Source: Candidatus Bathyarchaeota archaeon | Lineage (GTDB): Archaea; Thermoproteota; Bathyarchaeia; Bathyarchaeales; Bathycorpusculaceae | Direction of reading: 5' to 3' | Length of the DNA: 64,000 bases | Assembly: GCA_963811105.1 (NCBI GenBank) | Contig: CAWEPZ010000002.1 | Location: 96,001 to 160,000 of the forward strand | Shown: positions 19,379 through 41,110 of the stretch, in pieces | How positions within the stretch are numbered: position 1 is the stretch's first letter | How the letters are laid out: each line of letters opens with the position of its first letter | The notes under the pieces: generated by a model | Told to the model about the DNA's origin: nothing | The model's database searches: none | Seen by the model: the letters and a program-made list of their open reading frames with translations, nothing else | Translations under genes and position numbers: made by a program

Positions 19379-19489
19379 GTTAATTACCGAAATACTCTTT
19401 GGCTTTCAACTAGGGTTGAGTCTTTCTGAAATACCTTTAGTAAATAAAGTCACGGTTGTTTTTAGGGATAAAAAAGCAGTTCAAAAAGC

Positions 19490-20884: not shown

Positions 20885-20922
20885 TCCTGCACCAGATAAT
20901 TAGGAAAAGGAAGGAAATCAAC

Positions 20923-22308: not shown

Positions 22309-22608
22309 TGCTATCCCTGAATCTATGGATGGATTGATAGATGGGCTACTTTAATTAATATATGTTTTCGATTCGAGCGATTTATACACAAATGAGATTT
22401 TAGAGCTATCTTTTCTCCCTACAGCCTTATAGGAGCTTTACTTCACCCTACTCAGAAAACGATAACTCCGCTAGAAATAAAAAACAATTCCCTTTCCTTT
22501 TTTCGTTTAAGTCTGTTAGACTAATTAATTTGAAGTTAAGGGTTCTTTTTGCTTTAAGTCAATTGTTATATAATCCTTAAATTGTAGTGAACCTTGATTT
22601 AGAAACCG

Positions 22609-23316
22609 ATGCTATCCTCCCTTAAAAGACATTTACATGGGCTTACTTATCTACTAACGAATCCAGCTCAAGTAAGGCACCTGATCATTAGAGAAACCTT
22701 GTATCGTCAAAGAAACCATAACAGAAGAGGTTGGGTAGAATGGCAAAAATACGACACTTACACTGCAGCGTCAATGCATAGCACGGCAGTTGCTTATGCT
22801 AGGCCCTTAAATTTGGCAAGAATCAACACATTTACCACAATGATTAACCAAATCGGCAAAGGGCTGACGGTGCTGGACGTGGGTTGCGGTGATGGCTTAC
22901 TTAGTGAGCCTATAGCAAAAATTGGCAACACGGTTGCATCCGTAGATTTGCCAACGATTACTCCAGTAGCTCAAAAACGTCACATTTCATTTGTCGTATC
23001 AGGAGACGCGGAGAAACTCGCTTTTGCAAACAATAGTTTTGATTTGGTTTTAGCTTCTGAAGTAGTTGAGCACCTGTGGAATCCTGATAATTTCTTGGCT
23101 GAAGCCTACAGGGTTCTTAAACCCAAAGGTTTCCTAATAGTTGAAGCTCCAGAAGGCAAAGAAGGCTTGCGATATGATGCACATAAGCACTGGTTCACAG
23201 TTGAGATTCTGCAGCATATGGTGGGTTCAAAATTCAGCCTGATTAGGTCAGAACGGTTTTCGCCTGAGTGGGGCGCACCGACTCCAACCTTCATTGCGCT
23301 TTTTCATAAAAACTAG
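22609..23316 (+). CDS. class I SAM-dependent methyltransferase
   Basis: VLDVGCGDG, SFDLVLASEVVEH and RVLKPKG motifs. Confidence 0.9.
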   Translation: MLSSLKRHLHGLTYLLTNPAQVRHLIIRETLYRQRNHNRRGWVEWQKYDTYTAASMHSTAVAYARPLNLARINTFTTMINQIGKGLTVLDVGCGDGLLSEPIAKIGNTVASVDLPTITPVAQKRHISFVVSGDAEKLAFANNSFDLVLASEVVEHLWNPDNFLAEAYRVLKPKGFLIVEAPEGKEGLRYDAHKHWFTVEILQHMVGSKFSLIRSERFSPEWGAPTPTFIALFHKN

Positions 23317-23324
23317 AAATTAAG

Positions 23325-24389
23325 TTAAGTCACTTTTCTAAGCATGTCTATAATGGATAAGTTATAGGGACATTTAGGTTCACGCTGACCGCATCCATTG
23401 CATTCGTCAGCCTCAACTTCTAATCCGCCATAGAGCTTTGTGCCCAATTTTCTAATTCATAGGTCATGTAAATCATGTGGAATCTCAGAATTGCCGGTAT
23501 GTTTAGGTTCTCAGAGTAACGCATGCAAAGACCGCTGTCTCGACTGTAACTTCCATCAGGCACAAAGTTGAATCGGTTTTTTTCGTCTCTTGTTAAGCCG
23601 TTAAATTCATTTCCAGCCTTGCTGGCAACTCTACTTCTTCAGTTGACCTAAACCCTGGAATTGTTATGGCCTTATTTTGGCTCAAAACATACCCCGGCGG
23701 GCTGGAAACCATTGCATTCTGGGTCTGTGTCCCAACCACTCTAAGTTCCGTTTCATCTGAAACAAGCGATAGCGAAGGCTTATACAAACGGTTATTAGTT
23801 TTGAGGTTTTGGCTGACAGCGGCTTCATAATGGCAACTCCGACATTATTTTTTTTGCATCTGGTAATAACTCTTCAAGTGCCTGCAGAGTCACGAAGTTA
23901 AGCAGAACAAGATCTATGTCAATCTTCCCCGTTTCAATGGCTCTTAATAGAACTCGGGGTCTGTGGCAAGTGATACCAATAAAATCAATTAAGCCTCTAG
24001 AACGTGTTTGCTTGCAAGTTTGCAGGGAGCCATGCTACCCCATTGCCTTGGATAGAGTTTTTTCGTCATCAATTCCATGCAGTTGAATTATCTATCTTGT
24101 AAGTTTGAAGTCTTCTTAGGCTATTTTCAACGTGTTCTACTAATTTTTTTGTTCTTGATCCAGTTCTTGTATCTATAACACAGTTGTTTCGGACATTTTT
24201 CAGGGCGGAGACGATTTTTTCTTCGTTGTCGCTATCAAGCTTTGCGGCGTCAAAATATTTAATGCCTCAATCGAAGGCTTTTCTGACAACTTGTAAGGTG
24301 GAATTCATGCTTAATTCTGAAATCCATGTTCCGTCAAATCCGATTACGCTTACTTGAAGGTCTATTCTTCCAAGCCTTCTTTTTTGCAA
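23325..24389 (-). pseudogene. decayed aldo/keto reductase with C-terminal Fe-S dicluster
   Basis: manual translation gives MQKRRLGRIDLQVSVIGFDG, an in-frame TGA at 24267-24269, IQLHGIDD, GLIDFIGITCH and CNGCGQREPKCPYNL; multiple stops and frameshifts. Confidence 0.85.
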
Positions 24390-24399
24390 TCAAAGCCAT

Positions 24400-25776
24400 C
24401 TACGCCATGCCTGAACTATGAACAGCATCGGGGTTTAATCTTCGCTTGGCAAAGTTCAAAATGCCTTCACGTTTTACCCTTTTCATTATTTGTTTTGGGG
24501 ACCTATGGAACTCCCGGAAAAACTTTTTTTGAATTTGCACAAGGGTATCATAGTTGTACTCATCGGTTTTTACGCTGATCAAAAACTCGTCAAGACGCGT
24601 GTACCGTTTGCTTTCGAGCATTTCCTGATAGAGTTTGCTGTCTGGATAGGCAATGAAAATGTTGAATTGACACCAATCAGGATCCAACTTCTTTGCGAAT
24701 TTCAGCGAAGCTTCCATGTCTTGAAGAGTTTCGTCAGGTAAACCAAGCATGAATGAGCAAGCGACTTTTATACCGTTTTTGCGGCAAAGGCTAAACGCGT
24801 ACTCTATTTGCCTTAGTGTTGTGTTTCTGCCAATGCGCTGCAGTATCCTGGGTGAACCTGATTCAACTCCGAACCAGATAGTTTTGCATCCAGCTTTACT
24901 CATTGCTGCTAGCATTTCCTGATTGACCAAGTCTACCCGTGTGTCGCAAACCCACTCCAAATCAAGCTTATTCTCAATCATCTGGCTGCAAAGTTCAAGA
25001 GTTTCCTTTTTTCTAAGGGTAAAATTATCGTTAATGAAGTAAATTCCTTTTGTGCCGTACCTGCTTTGTAGGTCTTGTATTTCGCCGATTACTCTTTTCG
25101 GGCTGAAGCTGCGGCATATATTACCCCAAAGCTTTCTTGTCTCGCAGAAACCACAGTTGAAGACGCATCCGCGCGAGATGCTCATGACATCAGCTGGCTT
25201 AGCCTTTAAAAACTCAATTGTCCTGTCATAGAGTTCAAGTGGTAACAAATGCCTTGCGGGATATGGGATTTCATCGGGATTTTCAATGAATTTGGGCTGG
25301 TTTAGAATGTTTTTGCCTTGGCGAGTGCATGAAACACCCGGTATGGTTGCCGCGATAGGCTCATTGCCGTTTGTAAGTGCTGTGACTAGGTCTACTATGG
25401 CTCTTTCGCCTTCACCCATAACTACATAGTCAATCTCTGAGTTAGCCAGCAAAGTCTCAGGCATGTAGGAAGCATGCCATCCACCGACTACTACTTTGCA
25501 GTTTGGCAGAGCTTCTTTAATGAATTTTGCTGTTTCTATACAGCGTCTGAAGGTTGCTGAGCCGCAGGTTATTCCCACAATTTGCGGGTTAACCTTTGTA
25601 ATATACTCTTTGAGTTCACTGCTTGATTTGTTCATAAGGTAATTATCAAGCATTTGGACTGGGAAGCCTGCTTTTTCCAGTGCAGCGGCCACATACATTA
25701 ATCCAATTGGAGGCAACCGTTTGCCATGAAACCACGCGCTGTTTTCAGGCGGAGCTGTAGTCATAAGCAGAATCAA
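24400..25776 (-). CDS. cobalamin-binding radical SAM protein
   Basis: PPIGLMYVAAAL, GGWHAS, SRGCVFNCGFC, FGVESG. Confidence 0.92.
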   Translation of the reverse strand: MILLMTTAPPENSAWFHGKRLPPIGLMYVAAALEKAGFPVQMLDNYLMNKSSSELKEYITKVNPQIVGITCGSATFRRCIETAKFIKEALPNCKVVVGGWHASYMPETLLANSEIDYVVMGEGERAIVDLVTALTNGNEPIAATIPGVSCTRQGKNILNQPKFIENPDEIPYPARHLLPLELYDRTIEFLKAKPADVMSISRGCVFNCGFCETRKLWGNICRSFSPKRVIGEIQDLQSRYGTKGIYFINDNFTLRKKETLELCSQMIENKLDLEWVCDTRVDLVNQEMLAAMSKAGCKTIWFGVESGSPRILQRIGRNTTLRQIEYAFSLCRKNGIKVACSFMLGLPDETLQDMEASLKFAKKLDPDWCQFNIFIAYPDSKLYQEMLESKRYTRLDEFLISVKTDEYNYDTLVQIQKKFFREFHRSPKQIMKRVKREGILNFAKRRLNPDAVHSSGMA

Positions 25777-26027: not shown

Positions 26028-27140
26028 TTATTTTGCTAATATTTTTGATATGGCTGTTATGAGTTTTTGGTTGTCTTCAGCTGATCTGATTGTGACTCTG
26101 AAATAGCTGTCGTCTAAGCCCATGAATGTGCAGCAGTCGCGGATTAGTATGCGTTGATTTGTAAGAACTTCTTTGAGTTTAGTGGATGTGATTTTCCCGT
26201 TTGTTATTTTTACAAGCAGAAAGTTTGTTACGGACGGGTAAACATGTAAACCAACTATTTCCTCCAAGCCTTTGGCAAGCATTGCTCTCTCTTTAGCGAT
26301 GATGACTTTAGTATTTTGTATGAATTCTGTGTCCTTGAACGCTGCAAGCGTCGCAAAACTTGCAAGGCCATTAATGCTCCAGGGCAGGCGAATTGCATCT
26401 AGCTTGTTCACCAAGTTTTTTGCGGCGATGCCGTAGCCAAAGCGTATTCCAGCCATGCCGTAGAATTTCGTGACTGATCGGATAACAAACAGGTTCTCAT
26501 ACTCATTTATCATGCCTGCTAACGTGGTGAATTCGCCTTTTTCTGCAAACTCAATGTAATTCTCGTCGATGCTGAAGATAATGTCTTTCTTATGGCAGAA
26601 ATCCAAAAGCTCCAACACCGACTCTTTACTGTACAATGTGCCCGATGGGCTGTGCGGGTTGCAGATGCAAATTATTTTTGTGTCATCGGTAACTGCTTTC
26701 TTTATTCGCTCATTATCTAAGGAAAAATCTTCGGGCAACTGAACAAAAACCGCTTTGCCTCCGACACGTATAGTAGCTTTTTCATATTCGGAAAATGAGG
26801 GTATAGGAATTACCGCGTTAAAATTGGCAGACAAAATTTCGGTTATGGCGTAAATGAGTTCGATTGAGCCGTTTCCTAAAACGATGTTTTCTTCTTCAAC
26901 GCCTTGCCCAACGTACTTGGCGATTTCTTCTTTGAATTCCACTGGATTTGGGTCAGGATAAAACTTTATGAACTTAGCATATTGCTTCACTGCTTCTACG
27001 GCTTTAGGTGAAGGCCCAAGGAAATTAATGGGTCCACTGAATTCAAGCACTTCTTCAAGTGGGACATCGTATTTTCTGCTGAAACCCCAGATGTCTCCGC
27101 CGTGGCTAACAAACCTGCGTTCCTTACATGTGCTTGCCAG
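26028..27140 (-). CDS. cobD: threonine-phosphate decarboxylase CobD-like PLP enzyme (probable CTG start)
   Basis: HGGDIW upstream of the annotated GTG, GNGSIELI, CNPHSPSG, RSVTKFYGMAGIRFGY, ILIRDC; cob gene context. Confidence 0.8.
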   Translation of the reverse strand: MASTCKERRFVSHGGDIWGFSRKYDVPLEEVLEFSGPINFLGPSPKAVEAVKQYAKFIKFYPDPNPVEFKEEIAKYVGQGVEEENIVLGNGSIELIYAITEILSANFNAVIPIPSFSEYEKATIRVGGKAVFVQLPEDFSLDNERIKKAVTDDTKIICICNPHSPSGTLYSKESVLELLDFCHKKDIIFSIDENYIEFAEKGEFTTLAGMINEYENLFVIRSVTKFYGMAGIRFGYGIAAKNLVNKLDAIRLPWSINGLASFATLAAFKDTEFIQNTKVIIAKERAMLAKGLEEIVGLHVYPSVTNFLLVKITNGKITSTKLKEVLTNQRILIRDCCTFMGLDDSYFRVTIRSAEDNQKLITAISKILAK

Positions 27141-27678
27141 CTTTCCCTTCCTCCATTATCCTACCTATTTCTTTCTCAACTACTGATTGAGCTTTGAAGT
27201 GAGCGTTATACAAGTTAATTACCTTGTATAGCCAGTAAACTCCTCCAACGCCCAACGTAAATATGGTGACGAAAACATAAGTTTTTATCGGTATCGTCTG
27301 AGGCATAAACATCCGCTCTGGAAAAGCAGCCGCCAAAAACGCATCTTGATTTCGCTCATGCACCAGTAAATCCATAGACAATAAATATACGATTACAAAT
27401 GCTGGTATAACCAAAATTATGCTGGCAGCCCACGCCTTGGCGTTCCGCTCGGCCAAATTCTCGCTTGCTACAGGTGGCCGCTTTCCGCGGCTTATTAGAT
27501 AATCAGCAACCTGCTTCTCCACCTTAGCATCATGCTGAAAATGCTTGTTTCTGCCTTTAACAAGACGGTGAAACATAGGGAAAAAAGCTACGCCAAAAGT
27601 AATAACTGCTCCAAGAAACCACATGGAAAACCACATTTTCTTATCAGAGTAATTATTACTGCACATAGCGGTTTCCAT
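27124..27678 (-). CDS. membrane protein with internal duplication (DUF4234-like)
   Basis: two similar units (ITFGVAFF..RNKHF and FTLGVGGVYWLY..NAHF); overlaps the cobD start. Confidence 0.7.
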   Translation of the reverse strand: METAMCSNNYSDKKMWFSMWFLGAVITFGVAFFPMFHRLVKGRNKHFQHDAKVEKQVADYLISRGKRPPVASENLAERNAKAWAASIILVIPAFVIVYLLSMDLLVHERNQDAFLAAAFPERMFMPQTIPIKTYVFVTIFTLGVGGVYWLYKVINLYNAHFKAQSVVEKEIGRIMEEGKAGKHM

Positions 27679-29470: not shown

Positions 29471-30656
29471 TGTATGTTTTGTTTCTCCTGAATACTGGCC
29501 TCTATCTGGCGGAACAGGCGCTTATGTTTACTATCTTTCCAATGAACTTATTAAAAACAACTACAAGATCTGGGTGGTAACTGGCTCAAACCAGACCATA
29601 GACGTCAAAGTAAACGAGCAGTTGTACGTTTTCTTTCTTAAAATCCCAAGGACGCCAATAATAAAATCTTTTTTGCTTGCAGCCTCAAGCTACCGTAAAC
29701 TCAACAGCGTTCGTCATAGCGTCGATTTGGATATTACGCATGCTAACTTGCCTTTGACTCCGAATTTTGCTGTGCCCCCAAACTTTGGAAAAACCTTGAT
29801 TTGCACTGTACATTCAACATGGAAAGGCGAAGCAGAAGCAATAAAGGACGAGCCTTATAGTAGGCTGAACGCCAACGAGAAGTTCATGGTCAGCTTTAAC
29901 TGGTTTTTAAGGATTTTTGAAGAAAGAATGCTTGAGAAGGCACAGAAAATCATTGCTGTAAGTCATTTCACAAAACGCGAGTTAGTTGAGTACTACAAAA
30001 TTCCTGAGGACAAAATTCGGGTTATTCATAACGGCGTTGACGTGAAAAAATTCAAGCCCGCTCAGGATAAGCACAAAATCAAGCAAGAACTTGGGTTTGA
30101 CCCAGATGATTTACTTATTCTCTCCGTTGGGCGGCTTTATGCGCGCAAAGGCTTATTCACTCTTATTGAAAGCATGCCAGCCGTGATTCAGCGGTTCAAA
30201 AACGTGAAATTCGTGATTTCAGGCAAAGGGCAAAGCAACGAAATGAGAAAGCTGGTAGTTCACGCCGAAAAACTAGGGGTAGAAGATAACATAGTCTTCA
30301 CAGGTTATTACCCAGATAAGAAATTACCCAAACTCTATCAAGCCGCAGACGTGTTCGCCTTCTCCACTTTCTATGAGCATCATCCTTTTGCTGTTTTAGA
30401 GGCGCTTGCAACGGGCTTGCCTGTGGTGACAACTTGGGTTGGTGGAATTCCTGAAACTATTGAAAGTGGCAAAAACGGCTTTTTAGTTGAACCGTTCAAT
30501 TCTAAACAATTCGCAGAACGCATACTGTACCTACTTGAGCATCCCTCTGAGGCAGCCCAGATGGGTGCGTTTGCCAGAAAAACAATCCTTGAACATTTTG
30601 ACTGGAGAATAGTTGTTAAAGAAGCAATAAAAGTCTACGATGAAGTGCTCCGTTAA
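29463..30656 (+). CDS. GT4 glycosyltransferase
   Basis: VIHNGVD, VGRLYARKG, LEALATGLPVV, GGIPE. Confidence 0.92.
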   Translation: MRSVCFVSPEYWPLSGGTGAYVYYLSNELIKNNYKIWVVTGSNQTIDVKVNEQLYVFFLKIPRTPIIKSFLLAASSYRKLNSVRHSVDLDITHANLPLTPNFAVPPNFGKTLICTVHSTWKGEAEAIKDEPYSRLNANEKFMVSFNWFLRIFEERMLEKAQKIIAVSHFTKRELVEYYKIPEDKIRVIHNGVDVKKFKPAQDKHKIKQELGFDPDDLLILSVGRLYARKGLFTLIESMPAVIQRFKNVKFVISGKGQSNEMRKLVVHAEKLGVEDNIVFTGYYPDKKLPKLYQAADVFAFSTFYEHHPFAVLEALATGLPVVTTWVGGIPETIESGKNGFLVEPFNSKQFAERILYLLEHPSEAAQMGAFARKTILEHFDWRIVVKEAIKVYDEVLR

Positions 30657-31615
30657 GCGATTTCTATTGGCTCTTGTCTATATGCCTTGGTTATTTTCTG
30701 GAAAAGTTTCACAATATCCAAAGAGCAAAACAGAAACTTTGTTGCGTACTCATGCTGGTAAATCATCATCTGAGCTTTCACTGGCAAATCGATTCTTGGG
30801 GGCTCAAACCTATGTGCCACTTCGGACACCTGTAAACCTTCAACCGATATGGTTTGCTCTTGTAAGCCTGTTTTTTTGGCTATGTAGTTGAGATAGGTCT
30901 GTTTCCAATCTAACTCCATGATTTCTGTAGCGGTTATGTCTACAGCTAAAGCGTCGTTGCCAGTTATCATTAACCCCATTTTAACTGGTTTGCCTTTTGT
31001 TGGGCCGTTGCCTTCGATGCCTGTCCGTGCATCCATAATCGTTAATTGTGGCTTGAACAGGGTGTAAAGGCGATAGAACACTTCGGGCAAGTATGGATGC
31101 AAATAGATACGTTTGTTGCTGGGCACGCAGCCAAAGAGGTTTTTGACGGCGCCGCTATAAGCCATAAACTCATGAGTTTTCATCAAAGGCAAATCCACAA
31201 CAGCATCAGCCTCAAGAACGGTTTTGGGCAGAAACAGTCGGCTCAATGGAGTGTTGCCTTGAAATTTTACTTCAACAACTTTATCTTCTGACAAGTTGAT
31301 GACGCTGCCTCCTGCCGCTTTCACTGCAGCTTCGACGCCCGTTTTATCGAAGGCATTCCAGCAGGGGTAGTTGAACCCATTTGATTCGCCCACGATGACT
31401 TCACTGTTCCAATCCCGCAACAAGCCGACGAGTTGTTGTATCAATTTGGGACTCGTAACGACACCAGGCAGGTATTCGGGGTGACTTAGGTTTGGCTTAA
31501 TGAAAATTTTGTGTTTGCCTTGTAGCCCTGAATTGGTGACGGCTTCCTTTACAATATCACTTATATCGTCTTTTACACGAAAAATTTTGACGGTTTTTTG
31601 ATGTGCGCCGGGCAA
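30653..31615 (-). CDS. DUF362 domain protein
   Basis: IKPN, LPLMKTH, AVKNLFG and EGNGP motifs. Confidence 0.88.
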   Translation of the reverse strand: MPGAHQKTVKIFRVKDDISDIVKEAVTNSGLQGKHKIFIKPNLSHPEYLPGVVTSPKLIQQLVGLLRDWNSEVIVGESNGFNYPCWNAFDKTGVEAAVKAAGGSVINLSEDKVVEVKFQGNTPLSRLFLPKTVLEADAVVDLPLMKTHEFMAYSGAVKNLFGCVPSNKRIYLHPYLPEVFYRLYTLFKPQLTIMDARTGIEGNGPTKGKPVKMGLMITGNDALAVDITATEIMELDWKQTYLNYIAKKTGLQEQTISVEGLQVSEVAHRFEPPRIDLPVKAQMMIYQHEYATKFLFCSLDIVKLFQKITKAYRQEPIEIA

Positions 31616-31617
31616 TA

Positions 31618-33042
31618 TTATGCTCCTCTTGTTTGTTTTCCCATTATACAGCCCGGGTCAGAATCCAGCATGTCACCGTTATGGTATGCTGCTGAACGTG
31701 CTCTGCATCCCCCACAGATGTATTTGTAAGTACATTTTCCGCAGGCGCCTTTGAGGTTTGCTCGGTTTCTGAAGGAGATGAAGAGTGGTGCGTTTAACCA
31801 TATGTCTTGGAACTTTTTGGTTTTCAAGTTGCCAACATTTACTGGCAAGAAGACACATGGGTGAACATCTCCCTGTGGCGACAACGAACAATACAGCCTT
31901 CCTGCCCCACATCCGCCTATGAAGTCTGCCAGTGGCACAGCTTTCTTGGTTACTTTAACTGTTTGTAAGTGCGCCATAGACATTGTTACTTCGCCGGTAC
32001 CTTTGGGTCCTTGACACTGTAACCCCACCCGGGCCAATTGTGGTGCAGTTGTAAGTATGGTTGTTTTACAGCCCTTCGACATTCGTGCTAGTAGGTACCG
32101 CATGAGCTTTTCCCGCTCTTCCGGTGATAGGTCCTCTTCGTAATGTGATTTGCCTCTGCCTGCTGGAACAAAATTGAAATTGGTGAATCTTTCTGCGCCT
32201 ATCTCCTCAGCTAAATCTATTATTGCTGGCATTTCTTCAAGGTTACTTTTCGTAGCTGTGGTAGCTATGCAGACACATAAATCAGCTTCTACACAATTCT
32301 TCAAGCCAGCCACTGCTTGATCAAACGCGCCCCGTACACCACGGAATTCATCGTGCGTTTTGGCGGATGCCCCATCGATGCTAATGTCTAAGTAGTTTAC
32401 TCCAGCTTGCTTGAGCTTCTCAACGTTTTCCTTGGTCAGCAGGGTACCGTTTGTAGCAACTGAAATGTAGAGTCCACGGTCTGCTGCGTGTCGTGCAACT
32501 TGGAAGAAGTCTTCCCTGGTGAGGGGTTCGCCGCCCGAGAATGCAAGCGCCGTTAATCCAGCATCTGCAAGCTGGTCCACTACTGCCAGCGCTTCCTGGG
32601 TTGTAAGTTCCTTTTCTTTGACGGCGCCGCTGTTTGAGTAGCAATGTTTGCAGTTCAAATTGCATTTATGCGTAAAATCCCAAACAATCAAAAACGGAGC
32701 ATAAAGAGAAATGGGTTTCTTGATTCCCATGTAAGCAAAACTTTTGGTTAAATTCATTACTGCTCGCCGAGCGTAGGGGTCAGCTAAGAGTTTCTCAACT
32801 TTTTCCCGTTTAAGGTTTAAACTGCGCCTTAAGAATTCAAGCCAGAACCCAATGATCTGAGAGTAAAGAGGACTACATTTCTCGCAGTTCAGCTTGGTTT
32901 TCCCTGTGTAATTGTCTAATGCTGCTTCAAGAACAGTTCTGCCGCAGGCGGGGCATTTTTTGAGTGATAGCAGAAGCATTTTCTTTGTCATAGGCAACTT
33001 TATAACTGCATTCCAGAAGCTATCGTAACTAAGCATGCTCAA
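31618..33042 (-). CDS. radical SAM/SPASM protein with N-terminal extension, GMGT-synthase (Gms)-like
   Basis: N-terminal CPAC/CEKC domain, DPYARRA, APFLIVWDFTHKCNLNCKHC, ILTTAPQLARV, GGCGAGR, CGKCTYKYICGGC; the Gms assignment is from recalled similarity only. Confidence 0.7.
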   Translation of the reverse strand: MSMLSYDSFWNAVIKLPMTKKMLLLSLKKCPACGRTVLEAALDNYTGKTKLNCEKCSPLYSQIIGFWLEFLRRSLNLKREKVEKLLADPYARRAVMNLTKSFAYMGIKKPISLYAPFLIVWDFTHKCNLNCKHCYSNSGAVKEKELTTQEALAVVDQLADAGLTALAFSGGEPLTREDFFQVARHAADRGLYISVATNGTLLTKENVEKLKQAGVNYLDISIDGASAKTHDEFRGVRGAFDQAVAGLKNCVEADLCVCIATTATKSNLEEMPAIIDLAEEIGAERFTNFNFVPAGRGKSHYEEDLSPEEREKLMRYLLARMSKGCKTTILTTAPQLARVGLQCQGPKGTGEVTMSMAHLQTVKVTKKAVPLADFIGGCGAGRLYCSLSPQGDVHPCVFLPVNVGNLKTKKFQDIWLNAPLFISFRNRANLKGACGKCTYKYICGGCRARSAAYHNGDMLDSDPGCIMGKQTRGA

Positions 33043-33124: not shown

Positions 33125-33757
33125 CTAATCGATGTTCATTTTGAGGCGTTGTTTCATTGTCTCGTCTGCAATCTCTAAATCCTTAATAGTGTTAATGTTG
33201 AGGAGCACTTCAACTTCTTTTGTAATAATGGCGCATGTTTCAATTTTGCCTTCTTCTTGGATTCTGGCTCCGTTAATTATGTTGACCCCTGAAACAGCAT
33301 ACCACACGCCCCTGTACTCATCAGTAGAGTCAACGGACAATCCTAAGCCCTCCCGCGTTTCGATGGGCACAAAAACCGCAAAGAAATCTTTACCGCAAAC
33401 TTCAAACTGGCTGATGATTCTATCGAGGAATTTGCCTGTAACAGCTGGGGAATCAGCTGGAATCGTCAATACGGGACCCATCAAATTGGCTTGGCGAACC
33501 GCCTGTTTCAAGTCATCATGATAGCCTTTTGCGTCAGTGTGTAGCACTTTCCATCCTTTGTTTTGGCAATGCTTCTCTGTTTCAGGCGTGTTGCCACTGG
33601 TTACAACATAAAAGTCTGAAATCTTTTGTGCGCAGACAACTGCTTCCGTGACCCAATCAATCAGTGGTTTACTTTGAAGAGGCAAAAGCGGTTTCTCAAC
33701 TGGCAAACCAATACGTTTTCCTTTTCCGCCAGCCATAATCAAAGCGGGAACATTCAT
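33125..33757 (-). CDS. cobY: CobY-like nucleotidyltransferase (second copy)
   Basis: ALIMAGGKGKR, EKPL, GYHDDL, PADSP, NINT. Confidence 0.85.
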   Translation of the reverse strand: MNVPALIMAGGKGKRIGLPVEKPLLPLQSKPLIDWVTEAVVCAQKISDFYVVTSGNTPETEKHCQNKGWKVLHTDAKGYHDDLKQAVRQANLMGPVLTIPADSPAVTGKFLDRIISQFEVCGKDFFAVFVPIETREGLGLSVDSTDEYRGVWYAVSGVNIINGARIQEEGKIETCAIITKEVEVLLNINTIKDLEIADETMKQRLKMNID

Positions 33758-34584
33758 AGTAACATCAACACGCCTGCAAGCAAAATAAGCGTAGTTGCCC
33801 TGGCCACTTCATTTGTTGCTCCAATCGTGTCGCCTGAAACTCCTCCAAAAGCATTGTTCGAAACTTTTAACATAAGAAATGCCACTGGAATACTGACCAA
33901 TGTTAACGCCACACCGATTAAGCCTAAGAATGGATTAAGCGTTAATGCAAAAAATGGGTAAGCAATTAAGATCGAAAGCAGATAGGCGACTATGTTTAGT
34001 TTCTTTTTGGCTTTCGCCAGGAAAATTGAGCCTAACCCTTTATGTGTAGGTTTCCCAACCCAGACAATTGTGACCATAGCTAATTTTGCTGAAACTTCAG
34101 CGGCTATAATTGCTCCGAAGGCAAAAAGCGGGTTAATCAAAAACAAGCCTGCGAAAGCGGTAAACTCCACAATCATCGCAAGGAGCGCCCCCCAGTAAGT
34201 GACCGTCCAAGCGTGCGCAACGGTTTTTCGGTCATGCAGATTTCTCAAGCCAAATGTGTTGCCTAAATCGATTAAGCCGTCGAAGTGTTGAAGCCCAGTT
34301 AAAACCAGCAGGAATGCCACCGTCATCGCAGAAACCGCGAGCTTAGATAGGAAATCTGTTGGCAGGGTAATGAATTGATTAGCTAGACCAAGCAATAAAT
34401 GAAGGATGTAGTTTGCGCCTAAAAAGTAGCCTGCCGCAAGTACGCCTATGAAGCCGCCGATAAGCGGAAACAGGTACATATGCTCGGCGGTGTTGAAAAT
34501 ATAATCTTCCCCTCCGCAAACAGGAATGATGGTTAGGAAAGATAGCAAATCCCTAAAAGTTTTTATAGTTTTCACAGGCGACAT
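33754..34584 (-). CDS. cobS: divergent CobS-like (cobamide synthase family) membrane protein
   Basis: LSFLTIIP, FPLIG, HFDGLID and GGVSGDTIGATNE motifs; lacks the MxDxxxGxxG motif. Confidence 0.8.
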   Translation of the reverse strand: MSPVKTIKTFRDLLSFLTIIPVCGGEDYIFNTAEHMYLFPLIGGFIGVLAAGYFLGANYILHLLLGLANQFITLPTDFLSKLAVSAMTVAFLLVLTGLQHFDGLIDLGNTFGLRNLHDRKTVAHAWTVTYWGALLAMIVEFTAFAGLFLINPLFAFGAIIAAEVSAKLAMVTIVWVGKPTHKGLGSIFLAKAKKKLNIVAYLLSILIAYPFFALTLNPFLGLIGVALTLVSIPVAFLMLKVSNNAFGGVSGDTIGATNEVARATTLILLAGVLMLL

Positions 34585-34631
34585 ATACCCTAAACTACCT
34601 GAAACAGAATATAGGCTTTGTCGTGGATTAT

Positions 34632-35567
34632 ATGGGGGAATTACAGGGAAAAAAAATAGTAGTTACTGGTGGCGCAGGTTTCATCGGCTATCATCTGTGC
34701 AAAAGGCTGTCGGATTTAGTATCTGACTTGATAATATACGATAACTTATCAAGCGGCACCATGCAAAACGTGAAAGATGTTCCCAAAGTAAAATTGGTAA
34801 AGGGAGACATTTTAGACCTCAAAAAAATGCTTTCACTAGATAAGGCTGATTTAATTTATCATTTAGCTGCTCAGGTTGTTGTGCCCTATTCGATGGAAAA
34901 TCCTCTTATTGATTTTGAAACAAACGCTAAGGGGACCGTGCAGGTTCTTGAGAAAGCGCGCAAAGATGATGCTAAACTGGTTTTCGCCTCCAGCGCTGCC
35001 GTTTACGGTAACCCAACCGTTTTTCCAACTCCTGAGAGTTATGGTTTTCACCCCTTCTCATGCTACGGTTTATCCAAAGTTGTGGGTGAAGAATATTGTG
35101 ACATGTACAAGAGCCAGTATGGTTTAGACGTCACAATAATGCGGTTTGCGAATGTTTACGGGTTAAGATGCCACGGAGTCATCCACGACTTCTTAGACAA
35201 ACTTGCTGCGAACCCAGGTAAACTGGAAATAATCGGCACAGGTTTGCAGTCTAGAGATTTCGTCAATGTGTCTGATGTGGTTGATGCGCTTGTTACTGTC
35301 GGCGCTGAGGATTCTGCTAATGGTAAGGTTTACAATTTAGGGTTTGGAACAACAACAACTATAATTGACCTTGCCAAAATGATGCTGAAAATTCTGGGTT
35401 TAGAAAAGAAGACTTTCATTACAACAACCGGTGTCTCTTGGCAGGGTGATGTCACTAAGATATGGTTTGATAACTCCAAAGCAAAGAAAGAATTGAATTG
35501 GAACCCAAAAATAACTCTTGAAGAAAGTATCAAGGAAGTTATTGCTGCGAGGAAATTCTCGAAATGA
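34632..35567 (+). CDS. NAD-dependent NDP-sugar epimerase/dehydratase
   Basis: VTGGAGFIG, ASSAAVYG, YGLSK, RFANVYG. Confidence 0.93.
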   Translation: MGELQGKKIVVTGGAGFIGYHLCKRLSDLVSDLIIYDNLSSGTMQNVKDVPKVKLVKGDILDLKKMLSLDKADLIYHLAAQVVVPYSMENPLIDFETNAKGTVQVLEKARKDDAKLVFASSAAVYGNPTVFPTPESYGFHPFSCYGLSKVVGEEYCDMYKSQYGLDVTIMRFANVYGLRCHGVIHDFLDKLAANPGKLEIIGTGLQSRDFVNVSDVVDALVTVGAEDSANGKVYNLGFGTTTTIIDLAKMMLKILGLEKKTFITTTGVSWQGDVTKIWFDNSKAKKELNWNPKITLEESIKEVIAARKFSK

Positions 35568-36451
35568 CCCGTCCAGCGCCAGCAAGAGGATTGATCGCTC
35601 TGTTGCGTCTTCCCTACTGGCTGATGACTGGCGGTTTATCGCTTCTAACAGCTTTTGCCATCTCAAAAAATCCCCTCAACCTCAGCATACCTACTCTTGT
35701 GTTGATTTTCTTCTCCATGGCACTTATCACTTCAGCAGGCTTCGCAATCAACGACTACTTTGATAGAGAAAGCGACGCGGTAATCAAACCAAAACGTCCT
35801 ATCCCTTCAGGTGCCCTTTCACTTAAGCAAGTGATCACTATTTCTGGCGTGCTTTTCTCTGTAGGCTTGGTTATGGCTGCTTACATTAATTGGCTAAGCT
35901 TTGCAATTATCGCTGTGGATTCTGTATTGCTTTTGATCTATTCAATTCTTGTTAAGCGCAAATCTGGTTTTGTCGCTAACGTTTTGATTGGCATTTTAAC
36001 TGGAACTGCTTTTCTGTTTGGAGAAGCAACCATCTCCGTCCCTCCAACAATAAGCTTGATTTCCCTAAGTCTATACCCAATAGCTTTCGGAACAATCGGC
36101 GGCAACATCCTGCGCGATGTTCTTAGCCTTGAAGGCGATCAAAAAGTTAGTTATCCAACACTTCCCCAAAAAATCGGCATCACTGGTTCAACCAAAGCAG
36201 CTGCGGTTTTCTTCACATTAACCGGTGTGCTTGCGCCTCTTCCCATCTTCATAGGCAACTTTGGTATTTACTACTTGCCCTTCATTCTCTTGTGGAGTGT
36301 TCTACTAGTTTACTGTTCAATACGCCTTGTAACTGCTTCTTCAACGATAGCCAATATTCGGAAATATGAGCGGCTTGTTACTATGTCGATGATTTTGCTT
36401 CCATTAGCATTAATAATTCAGGCGATATCTCGCATACTTGGAGGGGCTTAA
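35564..36451 (+). CDS. UbiA-family prenyltransferase, DGGGP-synthase-like
   Basis: NDYFDRESDAVIKPKRPIPSG, second motif RDVLSLEGD..TLP, many TM helices. Confidence 0.85.
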   Translation: MTRPAPARGLIALLRLPYWLMTGGLSLLTAFAISKNPLNLSIPTLVLIFFSMALITSAGFAINDYFDRESDAVIKPKRPIPSGALSLKQVITISGVLFSVGLVMAAYINWLSFAIIAVDSVLLLIYSILVKRKSGFVANVLIGILTGTAFLFGEATISVPPTISLISLSLYPIAFGTIGGNILRDVLSLEGDQKVSYPTLPQKIGITGSTKAAAVFFTLTGVLAPLPIFIGNFGIYYLPFILLWSVLLVYCSIRLVTASSTIANIRKYERLVTMSMILLPLALIIQAISRILGGA

Positions 36452-37919
36452 CGTAAGCAAAACAAAGAGTGTCTGTCCTGAATGCCAGAAAAAAATCGAT
36501 GCCCAATTAACGCAGGCTAACGGAAAAATCAAAATTACCAAGCAATGCCTCGAACACGGCGATTTTGAAGCTACGCATTGGCAAAGCCTAAGCGTATACA
36601 ATCACATGCAAACCTACGACACCTTCCAGTATCTTGGTGACTTGAATGCACCAAAAGACCCCGAAGGCTGCCCCTACGTCTGCGAAACCTGCAACAATCA
36701 TGCTTCAGGCACGGTCATAGGCGTTATTGACGTAACTAAACGTTGCAACTTCAAATGTGCAGTTTGCTTCTCGACTTTTCCTCAGCAAGAAGTCGATTAT
36801 GAACCCACCAAAGAAGCGCTCATTGACATGCTTGTGTTCGTAAGCAAAGCTAACCCCAAGCCACCAGCAATCTTGTTTTCAGGAGGAGAACCGTTAGAAC
36901 GAGAAGATATGCCTGAAATAATTGGTGCAGCGCACAGACTAAAGTTTATGACTATTTTGGCGACCAATGGAACTCATTTGGTTGACACTCCGGGGCTAGC
37001 GAAGAAGCTTAAAGATAACGGTTTGAACATCGTTTATTTATCGTTTGATAGTTTCCATGAAGAATTCAACAAGAAAGTTAGAGGACGAGAGCTCTTAGAT
37101 ATTAAACTTAACGCTATTGAGGTTTGCCGTAAATACGACATGGAAATCATCTTAGTTAACACGTTGATGAAGAGTTTAAACGATAAAGAAGTCGGCGACA
37201 TGATAAGGTTCGCCGCCAAAAACACCGAGATTGTTCGAGGACTAATTTTCCAGCCCATAGCCTTCACTGGCCGAGCCACCGAAAACCCATTCCGTGAAAA
37301 CTTCCGTGAATGGTCCTTTGCGGAAGACGTTGAAAAACAAACCTTCGGGGAAATAAAAACCAAAGACCTGTTTCCCATGTCAGTTATGACTTCGCCAATT
37401 AAAATAATGCGAAAATTCATGCAAAAACCTTGGCCTCTCTTCTCTTGCAGTCCTCAATGCGGAATTGTAAACTGGGTTTACGTTTCTGAAGACGGCAAAA
37501 TGTTCCCAATCAACCGCTTTGTCAACTTTGACAGGTTCTTTAACTACATTCGAAAAACCGCTGAAAATGCTGAATCAAAAGGAAAATTTTCATTGCTGTC
37601 ATCACTATTCATGGCATCAATGCTTTCAATGAATATGTTCCTAGTCACCAAAGAAGTAGGTATGCTAACCTTGATGAAATCGATTATGCGCATGCATCTT
37701 GCACCATCTTACCAATCGCTGGGAAAAATCCGCAGACGCATCTTCCTCCTTGGCTGCATGGCATTTATGGACTCCTACAACTTCGACGTAAACCGAGTAA
37801 GACGATGCGTTGTGCACTATATCACGCCGAATAAGAAAATCATACCATTCTGCGCCTACAACAACATACACCGAGTCGCAATCGAGAAGCAATTCGGTGA
37901 AAGACAAAAGAAAGCTTAG
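36438..37919 (+). CDS. tes: tetraether lipid synthase (Tes/GDGT-MAS, MJ0619 family)-like radical SAM protein
   Basis: SVCPEC...CLEHG metal site, GCPYVCETCNNH, CNFKCAVC, CSPQCG, CMAFMDSYNFDVNRVRRCVVHY, IIPFCAYN. Confidence 0.8.
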   Translation: MEGLNVSKTKSVCPECQKKIDAQLTQANGKIKITKQCLEHGDFEATHWQSLSVYNHMQTYDTFQYLGDLNAPKDPEGCPYVCETCNNHASGTVIGVIDVTKRCNFKCAVCFSTFPQQEVDYEPTKEALIDMLVFVSKANPKPPAILFSGGEPLEREDMPEIIGAAHRLKFMTILATNGTHLVDTPGLAKKLKDNGLNIVYLSFDSFHEEFNKKVRGRELLDIKLNAIEVCRKYDMEIILVNTLMKSLNDKEVGDMIRFAAKNTEIVRGLIFQPIAFTGRATENPFRENFREWSFAEDVEKQTFGEIKTKDLFPMSVMTSPIKIMRKFMQKPWPLFSCSPQCGIVNWVYVSEDGKMFPINRFVNFDRFFNYIRKTAENAESKGKFSLLSSLFMASMLSMNMFLVTKEVGMLTLMKSIMRMHLAPSYQSLGKIRRRIFLLGCMAFMDSYNFDVNRVRRCVVHYITPNKKIIPFCAYNNIHRVAIEKQFGERQKKA

Positions 37920-38005: not shown

Positions 38006-38527
38006 TTAACTGGAAACTTGTATGTTTAAGACGCAGTAGTTATTGGTAAACTCGTAGGTCGATGTGTCAGGGTTTAAGCGCCAGAGTTCAAAAATAACCG
38101 AGTAACTTCCCACCTGATTTTCAGTAATTGTTTGTAAGCTTTGCCAAGATTTCCCGTTCTCCAACGTTATTGTTGTGGTGTTGATAGCTGGGGTATTAAC
38201 TGGTATGGTGGACAGGTTTGGAGTGATTTTAGTTAAGACTTGAAATTGTGTAGTGGCTCCCCTGTGGTTTTCAACGGCTAGCCACACACTAAATGTGCTG
38301 TTGTAGTTAGCCACTAGCGTGGCAGGGTAATTATCAGCGGTTTTCTGGGTGTCGAGGAGGTAAATTGTGCTGTAGCCTTCTGGTTTAGCTGGGAACGCTA
38401 TAAAGTAGACTGCAGCTACTACAGAAACAATAATTAAAACAACAAAGATGGCGATTACGATGCCTTTATCATCGTTTATGCCGATTTTCCTTCCAATGCT
38501 GTTGACACGTTCTAATCGTATTTGCAT
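38006..38527 (-). CDS. DUF1616-like membrane-anchored protein
   Basis: one TM helix then EGYSTIYLL, ADNYP, VENH and VIFELW. Confidence 0.7.
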   Translation of the reverse strand: MQIRLERVNSIGRKIGINDDKGIVIAIFVVLIIVSVVAAVYFIAFPAKPEGYSTIYLLDTQKTADNYPATLVANYNSTFSVWLAVENHRGATTQFQVLTKITPNLSTIPVNTPAINTTTITLENGKSWQSLQTITENQVGSYSVIFELWRLNPDTSTYEFTNNYCVLNIQVSS

Positions 38528-39206
38528 CTAGAAGCCCCTTAAATATAGTGCTAAATATCTCAATCCCTGACTTAAATGGTTTAAGCTTAGTTTTCCCATA
38601 TTTTCTGGCTTTGTAAGTGGTGGGGATTTCAACCATGTTGTAGCCTTCTTTAGCGAATCCGATAAGCATCTCCGTAGCGTAAGCCATGTCATTCTCTTTT
38701 AACTCTACTCTATCAATGGCATCATGAGATATCGCTCGAAACCCCGATTGGCTGTCACTTAAGAATTGGCTATAGAAGAAGTCAAAAGTAAACGTGATTA
38801 TTTTGTTGCCTATGAAATTTAAAAGGCCCATGGCTTTGTTTGGGTCATACATGCGTGTGGCTAAAACCATGTCGGCGTCTTTCTCAACCATCCGCTCAAT
38901 CATGCGGTTGATGTGCTTTACTTCGTAGGTTCCATCGCCGTCAACCATTACAATGATGTTGCCTTTGGCGTTTTTCATCCCTGTTTTTAGTGCTAAGCCA
39001 TAACCGCGTCTTGGTTCAATTATAAGTCTACAGAAATTTGTATCTTTAACGATTTCTATGGTTCCATCTGTTGAGTTGCTGTCAACAACAATAATTTCTT
39101 TGGGGTAGGCTAACTCTTTCTGGATGGTGGTGACAGCTTCAAGAATGTTTCCTGCTTCATTAAGTGTTGGAATGACTACCGAGACCAAATCCACTTTTGA
39201 CGTCAT
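38469..39206 (-). CDS. GT2 glycosyltransferase (DPM-synthase-like)
   Basis: VVIPTLNE, STDGT, GYGLAL, VDGDGTY, DSQSGFR. Confidence 0.92.
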   Translation of the reverse strand: MTSKVDLVSVVIPTLNEAGNILEAVTTIQKELAYPKEIIVVDSNSTDGTIEIVKDTNFCRLIIEPRRGYGLALKTGMKNAKGNIIVMVDGDGTYEVKHINRMIERMVEKDADMVLATRMYDPNKAMGLLNFIGNKIITFTFDFFYSQFLSDSQSGFRAISHDAIDRVELKENDMAYATEMLIGFAKEGYNMVEIPTTYKARKYGKTKLKPFKSGIEIFSTIFKGLLDANTIRTCQQHWKENRHKR

Positions 39207-39255
39207 ATGCATACCCCCAATATTTTGCAAAGGCTATATTGTTTCCGCAACATGG

Positions 39256-40440
39256 TTAAATAAGCTCTTCGTATATCTCGATGAGTGTTTCAACGTTCTT
39301 ATCCCAACTATATTTCTCTTCCATCATCGCTCTAAGCTCTGATTTGCGTGAGCCCCAATCAGCCTCTGAAAACTCCAAAATCGACTCTGCCATCGCCTCA
39401 GGCTTGTTAGGTGCCACAAGTTTCCCAAACCTTTGATTCAAGATTTCGCTTATTCCTCCCACATTTGTTGCTATAACAGGTAATCCGCAAGACATGGCTT
39501 CAAGTGCAACCAAAGGCAAGCCTTCACCAGATTTAGATGGTAACACAAAGAAGTCTGCGGCGTTATAGTAGAACGGTAAATCTTCATCGGTCACAAACCC
39601 AGTGAGCTTAAAGTTGTTTTCTATTCCTAGTTGCTTAGTTTTGATTTGTACGCTGCTTTGGTCTGGTCCTTTTCCAACTACAAGAAAGAAAATGTTTGGT
39701 CTCTTCTTGACTGCGATATTGGCGCCTTCAATTAATGTGTCAATGCCATTTTTGTAAACCAGCCGCCTAACAGTCAGCACCACAGTTGCGTTTTGTGGAA
39801 TTCCAAGTTTTCTGCGCATTTCCTCACGTTTTCCCGCTAGAGGTCTGAAACGAGCCAAATCGACACCGTTACGTAGCACTGTAATCTTGCTTGGTTTTGC
39901 TCCTAAACTTAAAACATAATCTCTGGAAGCGTTACTTACTGCGATTATTTTGTCTGCTTGTTTAAGTGTTTCCTTTCCAACCGCAAGGTCGTTTAACCGT
40001 TCGACTGTATCAAACAAATTGTCGTATTCAATGAAAGTGTTATGCTGTGTTAAAACAAACGGCTTAGAGTACCTTCTCGCAAGTTTGCCGGCAATAAGTG
40101 AGGTTAAGTAAGGGTGACCATGAGCGTGAACTATTTTGCTTGATTTTACCGCCCTAAGAAAAGTCTTAAAGCTGCTTACTGTCGGAATGGGGTAGGGGAT
40201 TCCAAGACTGAATCCAGTGTTAAGCGAAGGATAGCATTCAACGTTGATTCCATCAAGAACATAACGTTTGGGCGTCCCAATCCTGCTGGTTACAACCATG
40301 GGTATAAAATTTCTCTGCAGAAGCCGTGTACTTTGTTCATAAACAACCTTCTCTATTCCGCCAACATGCGGCAGAAAAGTGTGTGTAACAATGCACAGTC
40401 GTGTTTGAACCATGGAAGCCCAACTGCGTAAACTCCTCAA
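39256..40440 (-). CDS. GT4 glycosyltransferase
   Basis: PHVGGIE, HAHGH, RNGVD, EGLPLVALEAMSCGLPV. Confidence 0.92.
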   Translation of the reverse strand: MRSLRSWASMVQTRLCIVTHTFLPHVGGIEKVVYEQSTRLLQRNFIPMVVTSRIGTPKRYVLDGINVECYPSLNTGFSLGIPYPIPTVSSFKTFLRAVKSSKIVHAHGHPYLTSLIAGKLARRYSKPFVLTQHNTFIEYDNLFDTVERLNDLAVGKETLKQADKIIAVSNASRDYVLSLGAKPSKITVLRNGVDLARFRPLAGKREEMRRKLGIPQNATVVLTVRRLVYKNGIDTLIEGANIAVKKRPNIFFLVVGKGPDQSSVQIKTKQLGIENNFKLTGFVTDEDLPFYYNAADFFVLPSKSGEGLPLVALEAMSCGLPVIATNVGGISEILNQRFGKLVAPNKPEAMAESILEFSEADWGSRKSELRAMMEEKYSWDKNVETLIEIYEELI

Positions 40441-40618: not shown

Positions 40619-41110
40619 TTACGGTTTTATTCCTGCCTTTTTTATAGCTTGCGTATATACATTTGAAGATACGCCAGCAACCAAAGCCCCGATAGCATCA
40701 TTTGTCAAAGGAGGCAGCTTCTTTAAAATGCCTGGTTTAGCTTGGTCAAACCGCACAAACTCAAACATGCCTCTTGACCCGCCGATGTAAGTGGCAATCG
40801 CTATCCCGATCAATTCATCAGCCACAAGTCCCGGTCTGCCTAGAAACCGTTCCTTCGTCAATCCGGGAATCAAACCTTTCTCTGCATCCTCTTGAGCACG
40901 GAACGCAGCCACGATAAGTGTGGAAACGTTGACGTCTGTTAAAACATCAAGGAACTCTTCCCTGAGCATTCCCGAGGCTTTTTCCTCGTTTTCTACTCCT
41001 GGGTGAGGCACGTACATTTCAAGAGCCGCATGAATTAGGCTTTTTAGGGAAATATCGCGTTTTTCCAAGTACTCTAGCAACGGGGGCGCTTCTCTACTCA
41101 TGTTGTCCAT
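40619..41110 (-). CDS. cobZ: archaeal alpha-ribazole-phosphate phosphatase CobZ (PgpA-like fold)
   Basis: DVNV, LVADELIG, FEFVRFDQAKPGIL, DAIGALVAG. Confidence 0.8.
   Translation of the reverse strand: MDNMSREAPPLLEYLEKRDISLKSLIHAALEMYVPHPGVENEEKASGMLREEFLDVLTDVNVSTLIVAAFRAQEDAEKGLIPGLTKERFLGRPGLVADELIGIAIATYIGGSRGMFEFVRFDQAKPGILKKLPPLTNDAIGALVAGVSSNVYTQAIKKAGIKP

Follow-up and report, generated by a model that had tools for sequence, protein, structure and literature searches.

Why should an archaeal genome that already has a canonical cobT-cobS-cobY operon keep a second cobS-cobY pair, with altered motifs and set among lipid genes? The question is raised by a stretch of 64,000 nucleotides (in what follows, the window) of Candidatus Bathyarchaeota archaeon, positions 96,001 to 160,000 of contig CAWEPZ010000002.1. 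The source genome (3.49 Mb in 15 contigs) belongs to the Bathyarchaeia, and the names found on related loci are Ca. Bathycorpusculum (= Bathy-6). The second CobS, which we call CobS2, belongs to a clade that has lost an otherwise nearly invariant aspartate and that goes together with an accessory prenyltransferase and tetraether synthase (UbiA-B and Tes-B). We give about an even chance to the reading in which CobS2 would still use a GDP-activated corrinoid but with a changed acceptor, which may be another nucleotide or a lipid. The support is comparative throughout, and the relatives compared share history.

A second CobS-CobY pair

The two sets of genes are the following.

33754-34584, minus strand: CobS2, 276 amino acids, a membrane phosphotransferase of the CobS family, in a paralogue group specific to one clade
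33125-33757, minus strand: CobY2, 210 amino acids, a CobY-type NTP:adenosylcobinamide-phosphate nucleotidyltransferase
48632-49720, plus strand: CobT of the archaeal type (TIGR00303, 406.5 bits), single copy in the genome
49723-50477, plus strand: CobS1, the canonical CobS, split by a 1-nt deletion near 49873-49876
50438-51085, plus strand: CobY1, a second CobY of a long-branch clade seen only in the genus of the window

The second pair described in the first-pass annotation of the window is real and lies where it had been placed. CobS2 matches PF02654 with 92.9 bits (E 4e-26, cut-off 23.2), its residues 14-266 covering positions 2-206 of the 207 of the profile, and its stop overlaps the start of CobY2 in an ATGA. 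With the TIGR00317 equivalog it scores 105.4 bits, below the curated cut-off of 110; CobS1 scores 127 bits with its C-terminal piece alone. CobY2 is a full-length homologue of the solved CobY 2MZB/3RSB (E 4e-16 and 2e-15; residues 4-202 against 2-192 of 196), although it does not reach the cut-offs of TIGR00454 (118.7 bits, cut-off 174.7) and NF045495 (99.5 bits, cut-off 250), and CobY1 is likewise below both (136.5 and 120.1 bits, respectively). CobS2 and CobS1 are 31% identical, CobY2 and CobY1 34%, and by this measure both paralogue pairs are old.

The AlphaFold2 model of CobS2 (mean predicted local distance difference test score 94.8) has 13 helices and no strands, with an insertion of ca. 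25 residues at about 58-82, behind the second long helix. A sequence search of the PDB with CobS2 gave no CobS-family chain and no match at E up to 1, Foldseek with the model gave no analogue (best E 0.11, template-modelling score up to 0.27), and the ESM Atlas search returned CobS clusters only. No fused forms of CobS2 were found among longer proteins, which is weak evidence. Public sources name the protein as an ordinary CobS, and a literature search for a second CobS, mostly at the level of listings and the openings of abstracts, found no description of one.

The CobS2 clade and its altered residues

Phylogeny had been proposed in the first-pass annotation as a check on the pair. Our CobS tree contains 143 CobS proteins (a quick IQ-TREE search with SH-aLRT, i.e., approximate likelihood-ratio, support only and an arbitrary root; all trees used here are quick searches without bootstraps). 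CobS2 falls in a distinct clade (support 99) with the orthologues of ten relatives, that of the family f7 genome G040, and P0121, P0124, P0132 and P0134; the fragmentary representatives P0123 and P0126 also fall within it. CobS1 and its orthologues are placed elsewhere, and CobY2 likewise stands apart from the long-branch CobY1.

We sampled 401 genomes across the class and searched each with CobS2 and with the Tes of the window. There was a CobS match in 147 of them, 78 with the CobS2 type (called by score at E <= 5e-38, the tree check covering fetched genomes only) and 69 with the canonical type only. The CobS2-type genomes all belong to families f1 and f7, of one Bathyarchaeia order, and a canonical CobS always accompanies CobS2, bar three fragmented assemblies. 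It had been foreseen that the altered motifs might prove common in single-copy CobS, but the single-copy Bathyarchaeia CobS that we examined are all of the canonical type.

The motifs had been quoted exactly (HFDGLIDLGNT against HTDGLLDFGDG, and VAHAWTVTYWG against MHDQLTGAGG) and they sit at near-invariant CobS positions. When 16 members of the CobS2 clade are compared with 125 other CobS sequences, position 109 is Asn in 16/16 of the former and Asp in 124/125 of the latter; position 125 is Ala in 88% of the clade and Asp in 121/125 others; position 129 is Thr in 88% of the clade and Gly in 125/125 others. By alignment these are D89, D106 and G110 of the E. coli K-12 CobS. CobS2 therefore departs from HxDxxxDxxD in its last residue (H100-F-D102-G-L-I-D106-L-G-N109) and has lost the D...G loop (E. 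coli M104-R-D106-x-x-x-G110; CobS2 A123-H-A125-W-T-V-T129), the Asp of which is kept by one f7 representative of the clade, P0134. The changed residues lie in the model on helix 99-112 and the adjacent loop 123-129. The GxxGDxxG of cytoplasmic loop 6 is present (G248-V-S-G251-D252-T-I-G255), G251, D252 and G255 being invariant in 110/110 aligned sequences. The residues retained in the clade are H100, D102, G103, L104, D106, E163, K167, G251, D252, G255, N258, E259 and R262, and all 16 members have H100, D102, D106 (E. coli H80, D82 and D86 in the alignment), E163, K167, G251-D252, N258-E259 and R262.

In this comparison the motif changes are clade-specific and not noise. Identity within the clade is 42-80% with these residues kept, which indicates purifying selection, and the uniform replacement by Asn argues for altered function rather than decay. 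Judged by its residues, CobS2 misses one defining feature of a cobamide synthase and keeps the rest, and is no decayed spare.

The missing feature is an important one in the model enzyme. In the available portions of Jeter and Escalante-Semerena (PMC8092220), 80-HxDxxxDxxD-89 is defined as common to all CobS homologues, each of the Salmonella CobS variants D82A, D86A and D89A abolishes growth on cobinamide plus 5,6-dimethylbenzimidazole, and the authors link the loop of the motif to the binding of adenosylcobinamide-GDP; D82A is called enzymatically inactive in a passage of PMC8749415. The loss of an Asp that these excerpts describe as essential, together with that of the D...G loop, would suit a CobS2 that is catalytically dead and acts as a membrane scaffold or partner, e.g., for CobS1, for the adenosylcobinamide-phosphate synthase CbiB2 (see below) or for lipid enzymes, all the more as a membrane complex of the late cobamide enzymes has been proposed (PMC8092220, same portions). 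We consider such a scaffold highly improbable, since nine other near-invariant residues are retained, the replacement is always Asn and not random, and the translational coupling to cobY is preserved.

The probably ancestral CobY lies beside CobS2

In the first-pass annotation the second pair had been taken as an addition, possibly recruited, to a canonical operon. The distribution of CobY points the other way. We examined ten relatives with compact genomes (genera g24, g46, g47 and g16), and in 10/10 there are two CobS but a single CobY-family gene, starting 12-30 bases after CobS2; G040 of family f7 also has its single CobY after CobS2. In the CobY tree the sole copies of the compact relatives group with CobY2, and CobY1 forms a separate clade on a stem of 2.19 substitutions per site (support 100); the outgroup was the last 215 residues of a long open reading frame (ORF) of locus L018, which is the wrong part of it (branch length 10), and the root of this tree is to be ignored. 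The gene counts and the tree agree that the CobY beside CobS2 is the vertical lineage.

The two types are not fixed in place. Locus counts here and below refer to the best 80 of 209 related loci, which are 63-81% identical and hence no independent observations. CobY follows CobS2 in 78/80 (the other two contigs end), and in 11 of these 78 loci with sequence beyond CobS2 it is of the CobY1 type; in G008 (L012/L025) the CobY1 and CobY2 types have swapped places between the cobS1 and cobS2 loci. The subclade of the genus with this swap includes the termite-gut Bathycorpusculum and the 'Bathy6 ... Mill' metagenome-assembled genomes.

The compact relatives keep CobT, CobS1 and CbiB with this sole CobY, which suggests, from gene content only, that the CobY beside CobS2 serves the ordinary cobamide pathway. 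Most simply, the product of CobY2 would be adenosylcobinamide-GDP.

The tie to an accessory lipid operon

On its other side CobS2 faces a divergent operon, and further genes surround the two.

34585-34631: divergent intergenic region of 47 bp, holding the conserved element CACGACAAAGYCTATAT
34623-35567, plus strand: NAD-dependent epimerase/dehydratase (SDR), its real start probably the ATG at 34632
35564-36451, plus strand: UbiA-B, an accessory prenyltransferase resembling digeranylgeranylglyceryl phosphate (DGGGP) synthase
36438-37919, plus strand: Tes-B, an accessory tetraether-synthase paralogue (NF045702, 454.8 bits, cut-off 450)
31618-33042, minus strand: radical-SAM/SPASM protein of 474 amino acids with an N-terminal extension (best NCBIfam models of the AhbD/NirJ type, all below cut-off)
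30653-31615, minus strand: DUF362 protein, single copy in the genome
27124-30656: TM184 (minus strand), then the glycosyltransferases GT2a, GT2b and GT4a (plus strand), a block conserved across the cluster
27124-27678, minus strand: TM184 itself, a membrane protein of 184 amino acids without family assignment
38006-40440, minus strand: DUF1616 membrane protein, GT2c and GT4b, a block between Tes-B and CobZ

The layout is as first described, with the radical-SAM/SPASM and DUF362 genes downstream on the same strand and epimerase-UbiA-Tes divergent across 47 bp. The lipid genes are accessory ones. The housekeeping Tes-A (G000:C2:32654-34081) scores 668.6 bits with NF045702 against 454.8 for Tes-B, and the other UbiA of the genome, on contig C9, is 28% identical to UbiA-B and scores 232 against 166 bits with PRK12884. 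We also considered UbiA-B as an analogue of decaprenyl-phosphate phosphoribosyltransferase and rejected this (47.6 bits, against 164-166 for models of the DGGGP-synthase type).

The pair had been described as embedded among lipid genes, and the tie is stronger than this suggested, even if the lipid genes themselves lie in a corrinoid-salvage island (see below). In 80/80 loci CobS2 has the epimerase as its divergent neighbour, and UbiA and Tes follow the epimerase in 78/80, the two other contigs ending. The unit is intact in L085, L087, L089, L094, L099, L101 and L133, where the rest is rearranged or absent. In family f7 both operons run in the same direction ca. 2 kb apart, with an unrelated dihydrolipoyl-dehydrogenase-like gene between them, and the unit of the compact genome G347 has no epimerase. 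With the window type of Tes-B called at E <= 1e-112, Tes-B was found in 76 of the 401 genomes already searched with CobS2, and 75 of the 79 genomes with either Tes-B or CobS2 have both; CobS2 occurs without Tes-B in three (G358, G366 and G336, with small or truncated contigs), Tes-B without CobS2 in one (G179), and 322 have neither. Among 20 family members without any CobS, the window Tes found a match in 18, and 16/16 full-length best matches were Tes-A orthologues, 50-80% identical to Tes-A and 34-39% to Tes-B.

The 47-bp region contains a 17-nt element, CACGACAAAGYCTATAT, that by eye is nearly invariant in 79/80 related loci, its TATAT lying ca. 24 nt before the ATG of CobS2. It may be a shared archaeal promoter (B recognition element and TATA box), with a geometry that would fit a leaderless CobS2 transcript. 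A scan for bacterial-type promoters and terminators, unsuited to an archaeon, gave counts no higher than in shuffled sequence.

Could CobS2 then have left corrinoids altogether? CobY would activate a non-corrinoid alcohol phosphate as its GDP derivative, and CobS2 would transfer it to the UbiA-B/Tes-B lipid, giving a phosphodiester head group in a manner similar to the Kennedy pathway or to a CDP-alcohol transferase. The constant divergent arrangement across a conserved region, the cohesion of the unit in rearranged loci and its proximity even in f7, the co-occurrence of CobS2 with Tes-B and the finding that relatives without CobS have Tes-A alone all speak for it; the residues lost are those tied to corrinoid-donor binding (PMC8092220, in the portions cited), and the SDR epimerase and the five glycosyltransferases nearby would suit such chemistry. 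On the other hand, the sole CobY of 10/10 compact genomes that keep CobT-CobS1, CbiB and CobD would need two substrates, genes of the CobY2 and CobY1 types have exchanged places, CobS2 was seen only in genomes that have corrinoid salvage genes, and the unit of G347 lacks the epimerase. A head group unrelated to corrinoids is thus the less economical reading and, in our view, an unlikely one, though a live rival.

Regarding the radical-SAM/SPASM neighbour (31618-33042), its architecture resembles that of Gms, which in the accessible parts of PMC11186832 and PMC11214058 combines N-terminal helical, radical-SAM and SPASM domains and has many Bathyarchaeota homologues.

The break in cobS1

A canonical cobT-cobS-cobY set at 48.6-51.1 kb had been reported in the window, and the set is indeed present, but its cobS is interrupted and reads in two frames, 49723-49902 (TAG at 49900) and, resuming in another frame, 49818-50477. 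We had at first placed the frameshift in a T5 run near 49886; contigs of relatives locate the lost base at 49873-49876. Two public metagenome runs, each from a separate study, contain contigs that cross this position with 98-99% identity, and both have one extra base (A behind 49875 in X9, G behind 49873 in X10); the X5 and X1 contigs do not reach it. Among 24 other genomes of the genus, the CobS model has at least two matches in 21, the canonical copy being an open frame of 253-271 amino acids, and the three exceptions are 56-65% complete. On these alignments the break is the deletion of one nucleotide, confined to this assembly or strain, and either an error of assembly or a frameshift of the strain may lie behind it. 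A nearby endonuclease-IV-like gene (51082-51979, minus strand) consists of two overlapping ORFs (198 and 124 amino acids) and looks like a second frameshift, a hint of indel errors in the assembly.

With cobS1 intact in relatives, CobS2 is not there to replace a dead CobS1, and the suggestion that the pair simply stands in for an inactivated copy at 49723 loses its ground, as the deletion is specific to the window and without counterpart in close relatives. More generally, CobS2 could be a second cobamide synthase of the ordinary kind, with the same reaction as CobS1, as a redundant isozyme or as the working copy where cobS1 is broken. Its public annotation, a score just under the TIGR00317 cut-off, its location in a cob island adjoining cobY and the frameshift of cobS1 in this assembly all speak for it. 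Yet both copies are intact in 21/24 other genomes of the genus and over two families, at only 31% identity, the base missing from cobS1 is present in 2/2 spanning contigs of close relatives, and CobS2 is without an Asp that, when changed to Ala, leaves the Salmonella enzyme inactive (PMC8092220, portions cited). An isozyme would leave both this loss and the fixed partnership with UbiA-B/Tes-B unexplained, and we find it very doubtful.

A corrinoid-salvage island

The remaining cobamide-related genes of the window are as follows.

12515-13642, minus strand: CbiB2, an adenosylcobinamide-phosphate synthase belonging to a paralogue clade (233 bits with TIGR00380, above cut-off)
26028-27050, minus strand: CobD2, a threonine-phosphate-decarboxylase-like aminotransferase (TIGR01140, 258 bits for the ORF, 272 bits for the genome frame)
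40619-41110, minus strand: CobZ-like alpha-ribazole phosphatase (TIGR03161, 129 bits, cut-off 152.5), single copy
47945-48622, plus strand: DUF71 (Dph6-like), directly 5' of cobT
16440-17090: second DUF71 paralogue, in the island of the window
11019-12407 and 17903-25776, minus strand: five B12-binding radical-SAM paralogues, 30-56% identical to each other

Around the lipid genes extends a corrinoid-salvage island that comprises CbiB2, CobD2, CobZ, DUF71-B12 and CobT-CobS1, with BtuCD in G347. In this 1.4 Mb genome a single 19-kb stretch holds, in order, BtuC, BtuD, CobT, CobS1, DUF71, GT4b, GT2c, DUF1616, Tes-B, UbiA-B, CobS2, CobY, the radical-SAM/SPASM protein, DUF362, GT4a, GT2b, GT2a, TM184, CobD and CbiB2. 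CbiZ was found in 5/5 genomes and cobyric acid synthase reached its cut-off in 0/5 (best 50.5 against 309.9 bits; other ring-synthesis genes were not searched), i.e., these genomes salvage corrinoids rather than build the ring. The CbiB2 clade (support 99) is present in 9/9 CobS2 genomes examined and is the sole CbiB of G347, from which the CbiB1-CobD1 pair is absent; in the source genome this pair lies outside the window (G000:C2:322874-324871, L020), 227 kb from its start. Four single-CobS genomes have a CbiB: those of G081 and G267 group with CbiB1, that of G035 scores in the CbiB1 range and that of G100 is the outgroup. We had entertained a whole second set (CbiB2, CobD2, CobY2 and CobS2) for a different linker and dropped it as the principal reading, the compact relatives having one CbiB, one CobD-like protein, one CobY and two CobS.

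The five B12-binding radical-SAM paralogues are probably lipid-tail modifiers of the Gmm2/Ted kind, and a class I methyltransferase (22609-23316) lies among them. Bathyarchaeal B12-radical-SAM paralogues modify tetraether tails, as stated in the part of a recent preprint available to us (bioRxiv 10.1101/2025.10.20.683597). This modification gives a conventional reason for cobamide genes amid lipid genes and keeps alive the reading of CobS2 as an ordinary synthase.

Some further observations concern the island and its edges. TM184 always adjoins CobD2 in relatives, family f7 included. The DUF71 before cobT has the position described for the DUF71-B12 group (PMC3541065, in part); a third DUF71 lies at G000:C11:397448-398125, and presumably one of the three is the true diphthine-ammonia ligase. 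Just past cobY1 are genes of an energy-coupling-factor (ECF)-type transporter (52575-55029, minus strand; a CbiQ-like T component and two ATPases), which may take up cobalt or a corrinoid-related substrate. Upstream of the island there are a HemN/HutW-like radical-SAM gene (3300-4610) and a second AhbD/NirJ-like radical-SAM/SPASM gene (7110-8183), both on the minus strand.

What CobS2 may do

A corrinoid donor with a changed acceptor appears to be the reading that needs the fewest extra assumptions. The original cobY operon of the lineage would have been joined to a CobS paralogue with a new function. CobY would guanylylate adenosylcobinamide phosphate, as homology and the gene counts suggest, and CobS2 would be an active membrane phosphotransferase that turns the GDP-activated corrinoid into a phosphodiester, as any CobS, but with a different acceptor from that of CobS1, which receives alpha-ribazole phosphate from CobT. 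It is the loss of the third Asp of HxDxxxDxxD and of the D...G loop following it that points to a different acceptor being joined to the corrinoid. Two kinds of acceptor come into question: another nucleoside or nucleotide, with a second type of cobamide as the product, or a hydroxyl group of a lipid from the divergent UbiA-B/Tes-B operon.

A lipid acceptor would explain more observations than a nucleotide, yet no molecule of the class that it calls for has ever been observed. In its specific form CobS2 would attach cobinamide phosphate to the UbiA-B/Tes-B lipid, or to a lipid-linked ribose or alcohol, and the product would be a membrane-anchored base-off corrinoid; membrane-associated radical-SAM enzymes that depend on cobamides and modify tetraether tails could make use of it. 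Such a reading would account for the sole CobY, the altered acceptor/donor loop, the promoter region shared with UbiA-B/Tes-B and the restriction to corrinoid-salvaging genomes; all the same, we rate it as quite unlikely.

Several points weigh against a corrinoid donor with a new acceptor. The lost Asp is essential in Salmonella and the loop has been proposed to bind the corrinoid donor (PMC8092220, the portions cited), and its loss could instead point to another donor or to a lack of catalysis. Of the linkages, only that with UbiA-B/Tes-B, and none with another cob gene, persists through every rearrangement, and L085 and L087 are without any other gene of the cluster within 20 kb. There is one CobT in the genome, and no dedicated route of activation for a second lower ligand is visible in it. 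Finally, the co-occurrence within f1 and f7 may go back to a single gain of the island followed by losses in blocks, which would inflate the counts.

Genome surveys treat CobS as a single-function marker of cobamide production. The analysis defines a CobS clade without a residue that is essential in the model enzyme, locked to a second prenyltransferase/tetraether-synthase pair and occurring in abundant soil and peat Bathyarchaeia. If the acceptor were a new nucleotide, these organisms would make two cobamides from salvaged corrinoid; if it were a lipid, a corrinoid would for the first time be seen covalently linked to a membrane, and this would bear on why cobamide assembly ends at the membrane, a question left by the CobS literature (PMC8092220, as far as the text was available). 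With either acceptor the accessory Tes-B/UbiA-B pair gains a testable partner.

Comparison with known systems

The CobS of Salmonella and E. coli (PF02654, TIGR00317) is the closest counterpart. CobS2 belongs to the same family over its full length, has an all-helical model, keeps H80, D82 and D86 and GxxGDxxG, and lies beside cobY. It differs in having Asn for D89, Ala for D106 and Thr for G110, in the insertion of ca. 25 residues and in its score below the TIGR00317 cut-off, and also in accompanying a canonical CobS and adjoining UbiA-B/Tes-B. CobY2 resembles the CobY of Methanocaldococcus jannaschii (2MZB/3RSB), a GTP:adenosylcobinamide-phosphate guanylyltransferase, of which it is a full-length homologue and, in compact relatives, the only one; unlike it, CobY2 stays below the NCBIfam cut-offs, and the genus of the window has the extra long-branch CobY1.

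With the CDP-alcohol phosphotransferases and the archaeal CarS route the likeness is one of formal chemistry, in which a phosphate ester activated by a nucleoside diphosphate and a hydroxyl give a phosphodiester and a nucleoside monophosphate, at the membrane and with an Asp-rich motif. No relation of sequence or fold was found by the PDB sequence search or Foldseek, and the activating enzyme here would be of the soluble CobY type with GTP as the nucleotide.

Cobamide gene sets that lie beside client pathways are a further parallel, such as the norcobamide genes in the organohalide-respiration region of Sulfurospirillum or cob beside pdu in Salmonella. As in these, genes that finish the cofactor are found near users of the cofactor, here the five B12-binding radical-SAM paralogues of the Gmm/Ted kind. 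The Bathyarchaeia differ from them in that the conserved neighbours, UbiA-B and Tes-B, are no cobamide enzymes and in that the duplicated step is the membrane synthase.

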